From Escherichia phage E26, in sequence record MN655998.1: a stretch of DNA of 64,000 nt, one strand, 5' to 3'. Numbering within the stretch: position 1 is the stretch's first letter; every line of letters starts with the position of its first letter. The notes below the pieces were generated by a model, which worked only from the letters and a program-made list of their open reading frames with translations, ran no database searches and was not told the origin of the DNA. The translations under genes and the position numbers were made by a program. This document shows, one piece after another, positions 55,269 through 60,296 of the stretch.

Positions 55269-55460
55269 TTAGATTCCGGCGATCCTGCATAGAGTTCTTG
55301 TATTAGCACCAATAAGGATAGCATTAACGACAACCATTCCCCAATCAACCCACGGATTATTATAAATGCTAAATCCGTTTGCTAGGCCAAATACAAGCAT
55401 TCCGGTACACATACTCAGAGCAATAATCAACATCACGGTAAAACCAAATGCAAATCTCAT
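55269..55460 (-). CDS. small membrane protein
   Basis: Hydrophobic 63 aa. Confidence 0.4.
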   Translation of the reverse strand: MRFAFGFTVMLIIALSMCTGMLVFGLANGFSIYNNPWVDWGMVVVNAILIGANTRTLCRIAGI

Positions 55461-55461
55461 A

Positions 55462-55728
55462 TTATTTTCCTTTTCTCTGTTTACGTTTATAAAAGTAATA
55501 CATTACTTCATCACGTCCGGTGATCCAACATGCTAGGGCGGTAAACAGGTTTACAATTCCCAACACACCTACGGATGCGGCGCTATCAACAGACATAGGA
55601 ACAGTAAAGGCCATAACTAACATAGCAACGCCACAAATGACATTAAGCACCATTATAATAAGACCGAAGAAAACCATTGTCAATCCTCCCAAATAAGAAA
55701 ACCAACAATCACACCCATAATAAGACAT
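55462..55728 (-). CDS. small membrane protein
   Basis: Hydrophobic helices; basic C-terminus. Confidence 0.4.
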   Translation of the reverse strand: MSYYGCDCWFSYLGGLTMVFFGLIIMVLNVICGVAMLVMAFTVPMSVDSAASVGVLGIVNLFTALACWITGRDEVMYYFYKRKQRKGK

Positions 55729-55871
55729 GATGCGCCGCTAATAAGACAACCCGCGCCAAGTGATTCCCACCAGATCAGAGAAGCGACAATAACGCAAAAT
55801 CCCCAGACTACCGCAATCACAACATAGGCAAGGGTCGTCCAAAACATATATTTGTTCATAATAAAACACAT
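55680..55871 (-). CDS. small membrane protein
   Basis: Hydrophobic 63 aa. Confidence 0.35.
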   Translation of the reverse strand: MCFIMNKYMFWTTLAYVVIAVVWGFCVIVASLIWWESLGAGCLISGASCLIMGVIVGFLIWED

Positions 55872-56044
55872 TCACCAAACAAATAAGAAAAAAGCCATAT
55901 CAACAGAAACGAGGCAATTGATCCGGCAAGCAAAATGATATTAGAGAATCCACCGTCTATCCATGCAACAAAACAGAATACGCTAGTATAGAAGCATAAA
56001 CCCATTACAAAGCATACTATAAGCAACCATAGATAAAACGCCAT
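55856..56044 (-). CDS. small membrane protein
   Basis: Hydrophobic 62 aa. Confidence 0.4.
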   Translation of the reverse strand: MAFYLWLLIVCFVMGLCFYTSVFCFVAWIDGGFSNIILLAGSIASFLLIWLFSYLFGECVLL

Positions 56045-56094
56045 AGAAAGGATAAATTAGTGCGGGTAGGGTAATGTACTACCCGCTTTGTTAA

Positions 56095-56253
56095 TCAACG
56101 CAGAGCTTGTTCTAGCGCGATCCCAAACCATCCACAAACAACGCCCATACAGACAGCTACAAGAAGATTCATTCTCTCTTTAGGGATCATTGCAATCATA
56201 ACAACAACCATACAGAAAGCCATTACCATTGAAGTTAACATTTGTTCAACCAT
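56095..56253 (-). CDS. small membrane protein (52 aa, below track cutoff)
   Basis: Hand-translated MVEQMLTSMVMAFCMVVVMIAMIPKERMNLLVAVCMGVVCGWFGIALEQALR. Confidence 0.35.
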   Translation of the reverse strand: MVEQMLTSMVMAFCMVVVMIAMIPKERMNLLVAVCMGVVCGWFGIALEQALR

Positions 56254-56255
56254 TA

Positions 56256-56594
56256 TCACACCTTTAAAGTCATAGACGCATAAACATTAATGCCAGGCCA
56301 GTTAGGATCGCAATTATACTCAACATCCCACAAATAAAGCGGTTTAGATGTATCAGCCAAGTTTTTAAAATCTTCTACCCACATTTCAAGGCTATATGAT
56401 GGATAAACTAGGCTATCATATCCGCCGTAACGTTGGCCTACTGGTCGGTCAGTAAAAACTACCTCAAGATCAGGTAATTCTTTTTCAAGGATAACCGCCA
56501 GCGCATAAATCAGACGGTCTTCCTTGTTACGCTGCCGTAGGACCGTTGTCAGTTGGTTTTTCTGGTTCACTAGCAAGCACCTCCACATTTTCAC
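56256..56594 (-). CDS. hypothetical protein
   Basis: ORF tiling. Confidence 0.4.
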   Translation of the reverse strand: MKMWRCLLVNQKNQLTTVLRQRNKEDRLIYALAVILEKELPDLEVVFTDRPVGQRYGGYDSLVYPSYSLEMWVEDFKNLADTSKPLYLWDVEYNCDPNWPGINVYASMTLKV

Positions 56595-56847
56595 AGAATG
56601 AAATTTTCACAGACACAATTTTACCATAAGTGAAGAATGAATATACATTATCGAGATATTCAACGTCACCTACAATCACATCAAACTGCGGGTCAGCAAC
56701 CGCCGCAACATATTCTACCAGTTCATCAAGAGAATGCAACTTAATTTCATCAATTCGGCTGTATTTGGTTGCATCTTTAATTTTAAAACCACGTTCTTTC
56801 AGCTTGTCAATCAGAATTTCACGCGGCGTTTCAAACAGTTTGCTCAT
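56527..56847 (-). CDS. hypothetical protein
   Basis: ORF tiling. Confidence 0.4.
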   Translation of the reverse strand: MSKLFETPREILIDKLKERGFKIKDATKYSRIDEIKLHSLDELVEYVAAVADPQFDVIVGDVEYLDNVYSFFTYGKIVSVKISFCENVEVLASEPEKPTDNGPTAA

Positions 56848-56868
56848 AATATAATCCTCACATTAAAT

Positions 56869-57069
56869 CTAAAATTTGTTAACGACGAATTGCATAATTA
56901 GACTAATCATAAACATTGCAAACCAAGTATAAATGCAACAGATAAAAGCTACATACAATTCAATCTGGTCAGAGAATACACCGGGTAAAAGCATTAGCAA
57001 AATAACAACAGTAAAGACGCTAGCGATACCCGCAACAAAACCAATATCATTTTTACTAATCGTCATCAA
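56869..57069 (-). CDS. small membrane protein
   Basis: Hydrophobic. Confidence 0.4.
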   Translation of the reverse strand: MMTISKNDIGFVAGIASVFTVVILLMLLPGVFSDQIELYVAFICCIYTWFAMFMISLIMQFVVNKF

Positions 57070-57275
57070 GTCACCGTTTTGTAAAGAAACACAATAAAAT
57101 CCAAGACAAGAAAGACAGTGTAAATGATCATCGTCAAGACAGTAAACACTGTCAGATTTTCATCGTTAGTTAATTCATAGTCGCCCATCCATACAATAAC
57201 AAGATATAGCATTGAAAGAATGGAAGCACCTACGAAGTTAAAAAACATATTCTTGAGCGTCATATTAACAACCAT
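57066..57275 (-). CDS. small membrane protein
   Basis: Hydrophobic. Confidence 0.4.
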   Translation of the reverse strand: MVVNMTLKNMFFNFVGASILSMLYLVIVWMGDYELTNDENLTVFTVLTMIIYTVFLVLDFIVFLYKTVT

Positions 57276-58812: not shown

Positions 58813-58840
58813 CAACTTTTTTAAAAAAATTTTAGGCAAT

Positions 58841-58864
58841 AAAAAAGCCACTCCGAAGAGTGGC
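58841..58864 (-). terminator. rho-independent terminator (3' end of candidate small RNA)
   Basis: GCCACUC-UUCG-GAGUGGC + UUUUUU. Confidence 0.55.
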
Positions 58865-59010
58865 TTATAGGGAAGGTAGCGAATCTTCCTTGTCTCCAAC
58901 CTGCTAGCGGCCTAGCAAGTGAATGCTTTAGCGTACCGGATCGCCCACATACGCTGTAATAAATGCGGCTAGGTGACGTCCAAATCATTCTAACCGCGCT
59001 GTCTTTAGTT
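58841..59010 (-). ncRNA. candidate structured small RNA (about 170 nt) between late-promoter motif and terminator
   Basis: TATAAATA at 59017-59024 (minus), no ORF or RBS, four internal hairpins, UUCG-tetraloop terminator. Confidence 0.3.
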
Positions 59011-59015
59011 CACTG

Positions 59016-59234
59016 TTATTTATATCGCTTTCTCTCGCGACGTTTTTGATCTTCTTCCTTGATAGAGTTAAACGCATCAAAAAGACACATGACACTGATA
59101 ATGAACATAACCGTATTTTCTACGATATCCCACGGCTTCGCATCAGTACAGATCCCCCAAACGGTAAGAAATGCAAATAATGCAGAAGAGATCACAAGCA
59201 TGATACTTGCTAAGATATAAAAAGTCATTTTCAT
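59016..59234 (-). CDS. small membrane protein
   Basis: Hydrophobic; basic C-terminus. Confidence 0.4.
   Translation of the reverse strand: MKMTFYILASIMLVISSALFAFLTVWGICTDAKPWDIVENTVMFIISVMCLFDAFNSIKEEDQKRRERKRYK
59017..59024 (-). promoter_or_regulatory. late-promoter-like motif TATAAATA
   Basis: Exact T4 late -10 consensus; overlaps stop codon of upstream ORF. Confidence 0.35.
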
Positions 59235-59425
59235 GGTTTTACCTCAATTCTTCGATATTCATCACACATCCACGCAGTAAGCAAGAATCCCAACACATAA
59301 GCAACAAAATACGTTAATGCTTCTTCTGGTTCCGTGCTATGTATCATCAGTAAACCAGCGAGAACAGTCTTAATAATTACATTTAAAATAATTAGCCACG
59401 CAAATAGTTTCATCGTATACCCCAT
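59231..59425 (-). CDS. small membrane protein
   Basis: Hydrophobic. Confidence 0.4.
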   Translation of the reverse strand: MGYTMKLFAWLIILNVIIKTVLAGLLMIHSTEPEEALTYFVAYVLGFLLTAWMCDEYRRIEVKP

Positions 59426-59634
59426 TTCGGTCGAGTCTTTTCAAACTTATACATTCCGTAACAATCTAGAATCATCCACGTAACAAGAGCACCAGTCAAC
59501 ACAGACAACACACAGAAGAAGTAAAACGGTCCGGTTGCATTATCAACATGAGCAAGCCATGTAAAGAATACACATGCTAAGAATGTAAAGAACATCATAA
59601 AACACAAGAAAGCAAAATATTTTATGCTACTCAT
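59410..59634 (-). CDS. small membrane protein (start moved to ATG at 59634)
   Basis: Track start is TTG; ATG overlaps upstream stop (ATGA). Confidence 0.4.
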   Translation of the reverse strand: MSSIKYFAFLCFMMFFTFLACVFFTWLAHVDNATGPFYFFCVLSVLTGALVTWMILDCYGMYKFEKTRPKWGIR

Positions 59635-59741
59635 AGCGCCACCATACAACAAATCATAAGAAACCCAAACGCAATTAGAATTGCATCAAATTTAGTGAAC
59701 TCAGGTCCACCTATCAACATCATTCGTTCTATTTCGTTCAT
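59631..59741 (-). CDS. small membrane protein (36 aa, below track cutoff)
   Basis: Hand-translated MNEIERMMLIGGPEFTKFDAILIAFGFLMICCMVAL; ATGA overlaps both neighbours. Confidence 0.3.
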   Translation of the reverse strand: MNEIERMMLIGGPEFTKFDAILIAFGFLMICCMVAL

Positions 59742-59980
59742 AGCGTACAAAGCCATTTAAAAGCACCACATAAAGCGAGCAGAATACTAGGTATAAACGA
59801 GACCATAACAAGTTTGCAAAAATCATCTAAGGTAACACCGGAATAGCTACCTACTGTAACAACACCGATCATCAGACACAGAAAGAAAACAAATGCAATC
59901 ATAAACAAAGTATTGCTAAACAGTTTAGTGATCATTAGACACCCCACGACGATCAATTTCAAAAACTTTTTTACCATCAA
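59738..59980 (-). CDS. small membrane protein
   Basis: Hydrophobic. Confidence 0.4.
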   Translation of the reverse strand: MMVKKFLKLIVVGCLMITKLFSNTLFMIAFVFFLCLMIGVVTVGSYSGVTLDDFCKLVMVSFIPSILLALCGAFKWLCTL

Positions 59981-60128
59981 CGAAGCATGTCACAACTGCC
60001 TCGTTGACTTCCGCAAATTGTTGTGTTACCCACTTAAGGTCAGAGCGAAACAATGTTCTATTAATAACAAATGTTTTACCGCTCTTATCCTTACCCATAA
60101 ATTTTGCTTTAACCATATCAAATTCCAT
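59925..60128 (-). CDS. hypothetical protein
   Basis: ORF tiling. Confidence 0.4.
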   Translation of the reverse strand: MEFDMVKAKFMGKDKSGKTFVINRTLFRSDLKWVTQQFAEVNEAVVTCFVDGKKVFEIDRRGVSNDH

Positions 60129-60137
60129 ATTATCACC

Positions 60138-60296
60138 TTATTTGCTAATCGCTAAACCCAATCCGAAGAGAGCACCCGACGCTACAGTATACCCGAAAGT
60201 TTCAAATGCAGTAAAGATATCCAACCCACCAGCTAACAGAGTTGCAGTAAACAGAGTACCAGCTACGAACATAAAAGTTTTACCGATAAATTTCAT
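60138..60296 (-). CDS. small membrane protein (52 aa, below track cutoff)
   Basis: Hand-translated MKFIGKTFMFVAGTLFTATLLAGGLDIFTAFETFGYTVASGALFGLGLAISK; AGGAGAATCAAG RBS. Confidence 0.4.
   Translation of the reverse strand: MKFIGKTFMFVAGTLFTATLLAGGLDIFTAFETFGYTVASGALFGLGLAISK

Follow-up and report, generated by a model that had tools for sequence, protein, structure and literature searches.

What are the many short hydrophobic genes packed into a single 5-kb interval of Escherichia phage E26 (sequence record MN655998.1), and what might their products do in the infected cell? The interval, positions 55269–60296 of the 64,000-nucleotide (nt) stretch of DNA analysed here (the window), holds 22 genes encoding proteins of 36–108 amino acids (aa), numbered g01 to g22 in order of coordinate; all are carried by the minus strand, like the genes in the rest of the window, and every feature described below lies on that strand. 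Fourteen of the 22 encode predicted membrane proteins, and these are real, selected, clustered, and genus-restricted genes that lie behind early-promoter consensus sites and are variably present among related phages.

Over its full length, the sequence from 55000 to 60500 is 90%–99% identical to 58 phage records. All of them are Krischvirus coliphages or Shigella phages (e.g. RB49, phi1, GEC-3S, JSE, and W115), and by sequence similarity the source of the window is an RB49-like T4-type coliphage of this genus. The counterpart in RB49 (NC_005066, with coordinates offset from those of the window by ~130 bases) comprises the same 22 genes (RB49p103–p124), of which only dmd and gp55.3 carry a label other than "hypothetical". 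The interval is one variable, hyperplastic (accessory) region of an RB49-like Krischvirus genome, and as such is ordinary T4-type accessory DNA already sequenced and annotated in 58 public genomes. It fills a slot between the endolysin gene and 57B/57A/gene 1, which we take to correspond to the plastic e-tRNA-ipI segment of the T4 map.

Hydrophobic micro-proteins clustered within 5 kb

Membrane character was called from a 19-residue Kyte–Doolittle segment scoring above 1.6, and second segments were counted with a 17-residue window. By these measures, 14 of the 22 proteins, all of 36–74 aa, contain at least one strongly hydrophobic segment, and 12 of the 14 contain two, in a hairpin layout. The eight soluble proteins are g06, g07, g11, g12, g13, g14, g15, and g21 (Dmd). 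The TMHMM-based annotation of phage W115, which is independent of the present count, labels 11 of the orthologues "putative membrane protein". Most hairpins carry positive charges at their termini and an acidic connecting loop of 8–18 residues; following the positive-inside rule, they would adopt an N-in/C-in topology with short acidic periplasmic loops. Inspection of the 14 membrane open reading frames (ORFs) revealed no canonical lipobox ([LVI][ASTVI][GAS]C) near the N-terminus of the kind expected of a spanin or lipoprotein.

These proteins are not spread evenly over the window. Twelve small transmembrane (TM) ORFs fall into the 55–60 kb bin versus 0–2 in every other 5-kb bin of the window, a non-random concentration (Fisher p = 2e-7; positional binomial p = 3e-10), and small hairpin proteins are absent from another hyperplastic region of RB49 (155.6–160.4 kb). 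The sign of the AT skew flips at 54–60 kb, where the coding strand is T-rich; this local flip is the nucleotide footprint of T-rich hydrophobic codons.

The genes are also tightly packed. Eight neighbouring pairs overlap (five by ATGA, one by TGATG, one by 11 nt, and one by 44 nt), and four further gaps measure only 1–2 nt. Four consecutive ATGA overlaps join g20 to g16, tight junctions recur within g10–g08 and g04–g01, and either a Shine–Dalgarno site or the ATGA coupling is conserved. The initial annotation had described about 25 tightly packed small membrane-protein genes of 35–110 aa, nearly every one of them hydrophobic, and many coupled through ATGA or TAATG overlaps. The general picture is borne out by purifying selection, by synteny in 58 genomes and in metagenomic relatives, and by the TMHMM labels, and the size range agrees with ours, but the numbers were overstated: there are 22 genes, as in the RefSeq annotation of RB49, of which 14 (64%) are membrane-type while the soluble remainder includes Dmd and an LPD25-domain protein, and next to the five ATGA junctions no literal TAATG overlap is found.

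Selection, variation, and lineage restriction

When the window was aligned with 11 public genomes (12 genomes in total), variable sites fell mostly at third codon positions, and the membrane ORFs had a pooled ratio of nonsynonymous to synonymous polymorphism (pN/pS) of 0.23, compared with 0.20 in the soluble ORFs. The individual values are 0.03–0.40 for 12 of the 14 membrane ORFs, and the frames of the membrane set are intact and free of insertions and deletions (indels) in 8–12 of the 12 genomes. A more divergent relative, represented by the 174.8-kb metagenome contigs L014 and L015, was reached through a search with g22, and this L014-type relative retains all 22 genes in the same order. Compared with L014, all 14 membrane ORFs are open and align without gaps at 33%–99% aa identity, with synonymous divergence (dS) of up to 1.2 and a ratio of nonsynonymous to synonymous divergence (dN/dS) of 0.09–0.61.

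These comparisons bear on the sceptical reading that the hydrophobic micro-ORFs are an annotation artefact, i.e. chance open frames in T-rich DNA. Some records (W115, kaaroe, and 011D4) do leave g04, g19, and g20 unannotated, and the start codons of g02, g03, and g19 are ambiguous. Against this stand the third-position substitution bias, with a pN/pS of 0.03–0.40 in 12 of the 14 ORFs, and the absence of indels from the frames in 8–12 of the 12 genomes and in L014, whereas the non-coding stretch at 58840–59015 tolerates indels of 1–2 nt. The comparative data thus appear largely to refute an artefact, which we consider extremely improbable. Three micro-ORFs singled out by the initial annotation are indeed present, and each is conserved: g05 (56095–56253, 52 aa, pN/pS 0.18), g19 (59631–59741, 36 aa, pN/pS 0.15), and g22 (60138–60296, 52 aa, pN/pS 0.04). 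Judged by these substitution patterns, the membrane ORFs are genuine genes under purifying selection, and this holds for the three micro-ORFs as well.

The membrane ORFs nearest the endolysin gene begin with g01 (55269–55460, 63 aa, phrog_15016), which has one strong TM segment and a weaker second one, a pN/pS of 0.25, and 92% aa identity to its L014 counterpart. Predicted two-TM hairpins follow in g02 (55462–55677, 71 aa, phrog_15232, pN/pS 0.14), which ends in a very basic C-terminal tail and whose ORF is open to 55728, in g03 (55680–55859, 59 aa, phrog_16151), in the weakly constrained g04 (55856–56044, 62 aa, phrog_19354), and in g05 (phrog_16035). Beyond the soluble genes g06 and g07, g08 (56869–57066, 65 aa, phrog_15379) and g09 (57066–57263, 65 aa, phrog_21837) are again hairpins, the latter with an acidic loop, and g10 (57265–57447, 60 aa, phrog_16425) has one or two TM segments. 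At the other end of the interval, g16 (59016–59234, 72 aa, phrog_15168, pN/pS 0.10) is a hairpin with a highly charged C-terminal tail, and g17 (59231–59413, 60 aa, phrog_15717) and g18 (59410–59634, 74 aa, phrog_15290) are ATGA-coupled hairpins. The micro-ORF g19 (phrog_15282), ATGA-coupled on both sides, has a single C-terminal TM segment and an uncertain start (29–41 aa in different records), while g20 (59738–59935, 65 aa, phrog_17225) is a weakly constrained and often unannotated hairpin. The Gly-rich g22, with one or two TM segments, is the first gene of the dmd operon.

Constraint is uneven within the set. For g04, the pN/pS is 0.67 among the 12 genomes and 0.61 against L014, and the gene is absent or frameshifted in four of the 12; the corresponding values for g20 are 0.76 and 0.57. 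Among its intact copies, g09 has a pN/pS of 0.03; the gene is deleted or frameshifted in four of the 12 genomes. Overall, g03, g04, and g09 are affected by frameshift, fusion, or deletion in some viable isolates, with g03 frameshifted or fused in phage Whisky. At a single locus (window 56869–57263; L004 2381–2575; L014 11051–11448), g08 occurs as two very divergent alleles of ~33% aa identity, and the adjoining g09 has been lost by deletion in Whisky and by frameshift in several further isolates; by sequence comparison, g08 has thus been replaced by another allele and g09 lost repeatedly at one and the same locus. Against L014, dS varies from 0.02 to 1.2 between adjacent genes, pointing to independent recombination histories. 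Taken together, the pN/pS values, the gap-free alignments with L014, the natural losses, and the g08 allele swap indicate genes that are real, selected, and individually dispensable.

The same variation argues against a cooperative arrangement in which the proteins are subunits of one or two hetero-oligomeric membrane complexes, kept stoichiometric by translational coupling, for example along g20-g19-g18-g17-g16. Such complexes would fit the four ATGA overlaps from g20 to g16, the tight g10–g08 and g04–g01 junctions, and the uniform hairpin architecture, but tight gene overlaps are the norm across T4-type genomes. Given that viable phages exist in which individual members have been lost (g03, g04, and g09) or exchanged (the g08 allele), and that dS is a mosaic of 0.02–1.2 between adjacent genes, we regard such an arrangement, and a single multi-subunit complex in particular, as quite unlikely.

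Homology searches yielded relatives only within the genus. PHROG searches assigned the proteins to separate small families of unknown function, with no PHROG common to any of the 22 proteins, and a Pfam search with the 14 membrane ORFs at E ≤1 gave nothing above threshold, the best matches being to holins or domains of unknown function (DUFs) at E 0.002–0.9. With tblastn, the 14 membrane ORFs matched only the same 58 Krischvirus records among 50,697 phage records. A word-indexed search of 5.8 billion proteins with g22 returned three clusters (90% identity), all Krischvirus-like, and g02, searched exhaustively with HMMER against 1.84 billion representatives, returned one true match, which is 79% identical. 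On the basis of the tblastn, g22, and g02 searches, which found Krischvirus-like relatives only, we consider the membrane set genus-restricted: its members constitute new families within an established type, the small early membrane proteins of phages. Two other candidate relationships were rejected. The 285-aa protein P0005, considered as a relative of g02, is a non-membrane repeat protein and a spurious match, and a paralogous family arising by tandem amplification is not supported by an all-against-all comparison of the 22 sequences (best blastp E 0.18, phmmer E 0.03).

Lineage restriction raises the question of whether these are young, possibly de novo TM ORFs born from T-rich sequence, many of them marginal proto-genes and not dedicated effectors. 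Gene birth of this TM-first type from thymine-rich sequence has been shown in yeast (Vakirlis et al. 2020, PMC7005711), and the cluster shares several traits with the yeast proteins: it is lineage-restricted, with no homologue outside Krischvirus for any of the 14 in the 50,697 phage records or for g02 and g22 in 1.8–5.8 billion proteins, and its ORFs are short, TM-rich, and encoded on a T-rich strand. The lack of paralogy, the near-neutrality of g04 and g20, the frequent losses, and the difference in pooled pN/pS against L014 (0.38 for the membrane ORFs vs. 0.18 for their soluble neighbours, i.e. the membrane ORFs evolve faster) would also fit. Unlike in the yeast case, purifying selection is clear here and no non-coding ancestral sequence was identified. 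Moreover, pN/pS is at most 0.40 in 12 of the 14 ORFs, all 14 have exactly the same length in L014, free of indels although dS reaches 1.2, and Shine–Dalgarno sites or ATGA coupling are kept. The soluble g06 and g07 are equally genus-restricted, and ORFan status is therefore not specific to the TM genes. An origin as marginal proto-genes thus seems unlikely, and a recent origin would in any case be compatible with present function; from the selection seen, most of the membrane ORFs are, in our judgement, functional now.

Promoter cassettes, a non-coding element, and the endolysin

The initial annotation had also reported interspersed promoter cassettes, and four such sites can be located. Promoter matches at 57853, 58543, 58812, and 60356, with −10 elements at 57825, 58515, 58784, and 60328, respectively, each agree with the consensus at 10–11 of 12 positions and lie in intergenic gaps just upstream of ORFs. 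In each, TTGACA is separated by 17 nt from a near-consensus −10 hexamer, and a G/C stem-loop lies between or over the hexamers. The cassette at 57783–57861 has TTGACA, a 17-nt spacer, and CATAAT, with a GGGTGTA...TACACCC stem-loop over the −10 hexamer; that at 58486–58551 has TTGACA, a GGGGAG-loop-CTCCCC hairpin, and TACAAT; that at 58738–58839 has an AT-rich tract, TTGACA, a 17-nt spacer, and CATAAT; and that at 60297–60363 has TTGACA, a 17-nt spacer, and TAAGAT with a GGGGGTA...TACCCCC stem-loop. A 61-nt repeat family recurs at 57804, 58763, and 60758. By their sequence, the four cassettes are promoter-early stem-loop (PeSL) elements of the type known from the hyperplastic regions of RB49 and phi1, a link that the initial annotation missed. 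PeSLs have been described as strong promoters, effective terminators, and recombination sites for the shuffling of ORFans (Arbiol et al. 2010, PMC2839356), and their activity has been shown in vivo for 193/192, 206/205, and 211/210 (PMC2839356), that is, for PeSLs other than the four found here.

The interval thereby resembles the hyperplastic regions described for RB49 and phi1 (PMC2839356; Comeau et al. 2014, PMC4122927) in several respects. It belongs to the same phage group and region type, is dense in ORFans, carries sigma70-consensus promoters fused to G/C stem-loops in its gaps, shows insertion, deletion, and replacement among close relatives, and contains a single-gene cassette (g15) that is flanked by PeSLs and common to unrelated ~50-kb phages. 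It differs in that the membrane character of the ORFans does not appear in those papers, where "transmembrane" occurs 0 times and these particular ORFs are not discussed.

Read from these sites, four transcription units may be proposed. Transcription from P60356 would run through g22, dmd, and g20–g16 to an intrinsic terminator at 58866–58845; P58812 would serve g15 and P58543 would serve g14–g12; and P57853 would drive g11 and g10–g01 and continue into the gene for the M15 endolysin. The consensus sequences suggest that all four promoters are of the host sigma70 type and active early. The T4-type late-promoter motif TATAAATA is not found upstream of any gene of the interval or of the endolysin gene; its sole copy in the interval lies at the stop codon of g16.

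The soluble genes are distributed differently with respect to the PeSLs. The first gene behind the PeSL at 57853, g11 (57456–57782, 108 aa), encodes the LPD25-domain protein (PF18840, E 3.4e-14). In order of coordinate, it is followed by g12 (57862–58050, 62 aa, phrog_2084), a homologue of T4 gp55.3 with a DUF5490 match below the cut-off, by g13 (58060–58248, 62 aa) and g14 (58258–58485, 75 aa), and by g15 (58552–58737, 61 aa, DUF7421), a single-gene cassette flanked by two PeSLs. Many coliphages and Shigella phages of ~50 kb, among them tunzivis, ADB-2, JMPW1, and pSf-2, carry genes with 74%–78% nucleotide identity to g15, and g13–g14 are ~78% identical at the nucleotide level to genes of the ~50-kb phage GaoY1-9D. 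From these similarities, the PeSL-flanked soluble genes look like mobile cassettes exchanged horizontally between unrelated phage families. Unlike them, the membrane ORFs form two long coupled runs without internal PeSLs. The remaining soluble ORFans, g06 (56256–56570, 104 aa) and g07 (56527–56847, 106 aa), overlap by 44 nt and share 100% and 99% aa identity, respectively, with their counterparts in the divergent L014, compared with 33%–85% for their neighbours. This points to unusually strong constraint on both. Neither has a PDB or Pfam match, and a PDB sequence search with g15 likewise gave nothing meaningful.

Between the two runs, a structured non-coding element of 176 nt (58840–59015) occupies most of the 278-nt gap separating g16 from g15. 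It is predicted to form five hairpins, the last of which is the terminator at 58866–58845, with a minimum free energy of −59.3 kcal/mol (z = −3.2 vs. shuffled sequences). Only 4.0% of its columns are variable, compared with 7.9%–11.6% in the flanking genes, and the L014 copy is 92% identical, next to a g16 with a dS of 1.2. One compensatory GC-to-AU pair and a UUCG-to-GAAA tetraloop swap were observed, and an overlapping 55-aa ORF can be excluded since indels of 1–2 nt are tolerated in one loop. Just upstream of the element, at 59024–59017, the late-promoter octamer TATAAATA is invariant, although a few copies per 64 kb are expected by chance. No Rfam family scored above the gathering threshold, ARAGORN detected no tRNA, and outside Krischvirus the blastn matches were confined to the generic terminator hairpin. 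Viral and metagenome contigs, when scanned, yielded near-identical copies only, which could not strengthen the covariation signal; the full element was found in Krischvirus alone. The element, unannotated in the records inspected, is a candidate phage small RNA (sRNA) or structured 3′ untranslated region.

At the downstream end of the interval, the endolysin gene (54851–55240), encoding an M15 L-Ala-D-Glu peptidase (PF13539), follows g01 after a gap of 28 nt as the last gene of the putative operon that starts at the 57853 promoter. Its Shine–Dalgarno sequence AAGGGGGTGA is enclosed in a small hairpin, TCACTCACAAAGGGGGTGA (55244–55262). This is reminiscent of T4 gene e, in which a hairpin sequestering the ribosome-binding site stops translation from early transcripts; a late promoter consensus was not found upstream of the endolysin gene. 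Two genes further downstream, positions 53751–54167 encode a 138-aa stand-alone glycyl-radical domain protein (T4 vs.6, PF01228), whose counterpart in W115 is labelled "autonomous glycyl radical cofactor".

The proximity of the endolysin gene suggests a lysis module in which hairpin proteins, especially g01–g05, g02, g16, and g18, would be holins, pinholins, or antiholins controlling release of the M15 endolysin. Besides the shared operon of g01–g10 with the endolysin gene directly downstream, g02, g16, and g18 resemble class II holins and pinholins such as S21 of phage 21, being ~70 aa long with two TM segments, a predicted N-in/C-in topology, and a basic or otherwise charged C-terminal tail, and g01–g05 lie beside the endolysin gene. 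Sub-threshold Pfam matches include Phage_holin_3_5 for g02 (E 0.058), Phage_holin_5_2 for g05 (E 0.054), and Phage_holin_3_6 for g18 (E 0.24). These holin matches, at E 0.054–0.9 and 10–14 bits, nevertheless fall well short of the gathering cut-offs of 27–29 bits, and RB49 has a T4-type holin t (RB49 154972–155628) and the antiholin rI elsewhere in its genome. Upstream of g01–g10 and the endolysin gene there is an early-type promoter but no late TATAAATA, 14 genes far exceed the needs of a lysis cassette, and g03, g04, and g09 are disrupted naturally in viable isolates. A conserved link between the endolysin and the TM cluster was likewise rejected: the Slopekvirus phage phiKp_1 has an endolysin of the same M15 type (short match of ~72% nucleotide identity) with no small TM genes upstream. 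A role in lysis, including its timing, is accordingly disfavoured, and we consider it quite improbable for the set.

Candidate roles at the host membrane

As examples of what small phage membrane proteins can do, the initial annotation had named superinfection exclusion, lysis timing, and the inhibition of transporters; none of the 14 membrane ORFs matches Imm, a holin, a spanin, or another Pfam family above threshold. The neighbourhood of the membrane ORFs offers a different perspective on their role. Embedded between g20 and g22, g21 (59925–60128) encodes soluble Dmd, the antitoxin against host RnlA/LsoA (T4 Dmd, PDB 5HY3_B, E 2.5e-12; PF17587 in an orthologue). Two genes upstream of the cluster lies the gene for Acb1 (T4 57B; 60851–61315), a phosphodiesterase that cleaves cyclic nucleotides and counteracts the cyclic oligonucleotide-based antiphage signalling system, CBASS (PDB 7T26, E 1.8e-43; PF23474); RefSeq records name this gene 57B or "RNA ligase". 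Owing to the presence of Dmd, Acb1, and the LPD25-domain protein, the region resembles the counter-defence accessory regions of enterobacterial phages, which are generally viewed as directed in the main against host defences or rival viruses (Silas et al., bioRxiv 10.1101/2023.04.06.535777). As in those regions, fast-evolving and variably present small genes of unknown function are located beside Dmd and Acb1; the strong membrane bias is, however, peculiar to the present interval, and RB49 was outside that screen.

A role in superinfection exclusion is an attractive possibility. T4 Imm is a small inner-membrane protein with two TM segments, a layout predicted here for 12 of the 14 proteins, and in T4 the sp gene lies two genes from dmd, which here is embedded among membrane ORFs. 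Imm and Sp/Spackle are, in addition, small early envelope proteins of a T4-type phage (PMC7677548). Unlike Spackle, none of the membrane ORFs has a layout of signal peptide plus soluble domain. Neither imm nor sp is annotated in the RB49 segments inspected, and the Imm family of Pfam gave no match at E ≤1 among the 14 membrane ORFs.

We favour a broader reading, to which we assign a probability of about 0.55, in which the membrane ORFs encode early inner-membrane micro-proteins that each act separately on a membrane component of the host or of a competitor, and that together form the membrane arm of an accessory arsenal. Under this scenario, the proteins would insert into the host inner membrane shortly after infection, where each would independently bind or modulate some membrane component, either of the host or of a competing phage. 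Among the candidate targets are the machinery of DNA entry or exclusion, defence effectors bound to the membrane, transporters, and further functions of the envelope. The 14 proteins together would then constitute the individually dispensable "membrane arm" of a counter-defence and host-takeover island that also comprises Dmd, the LPD25-domain protein, and Acb1. Membrane insertion, topology, early timing, and any target are all inferred.

Several observations weigh against this proposal. The proximity of Dmd and Acb1 is guilt by association, and no literature was found on these ORFs or on Krischvirus membrane proteins. The four promoters are consensus matches, the experiments of Arbiol et al. 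having concerned other PeSLs. Two of the ORFs, g04 and g20, are weakly constrained (0.57–0.76), and as a hydrophobic composition in itself limits nonsynonymous change, a pN/pS below 1 partly reflects a requirement to stay hydrophobic and not a specific interaction. Finally, the ATGA coupling of g20–g16 could instead indicate a multi-subunit complex. A bolder version of the proposal, in which the region is a "nursery and arsenal" of two-helix membrane micro-proteins born within the lineage, with most of the set each neutralising a different membrane-embedded defence effector or entry route and the 176-nt RNA acting as an sRNA of the same programme, is speculative and in our view rather unlikely.

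Small membrane proteins of phages are often missed in annotation and hardly ever characterised, but the handful with a known role (Imm, holins and antiholins, and single-gene lysis proteins) govern cell entry, lysis, and defence. The interval adds 14 unrelated, selected, genus-restricted examples within 5 kb of a cultivable coliphage used in phage therapy, adjoined by counter-defence genes. Because the region is public and consists of ordinary T4-type accessory DNA, its value lies in the prioritisation of experiments and not in a new kind of system, and the block is an inexpensive, clearly delimited set of targets for screens by deletion and by expression. If the region does prove to be a "nursery and arsenal", the cluster would offer, in compact form, new inhibitors directed at membrane proteins of bacteria.

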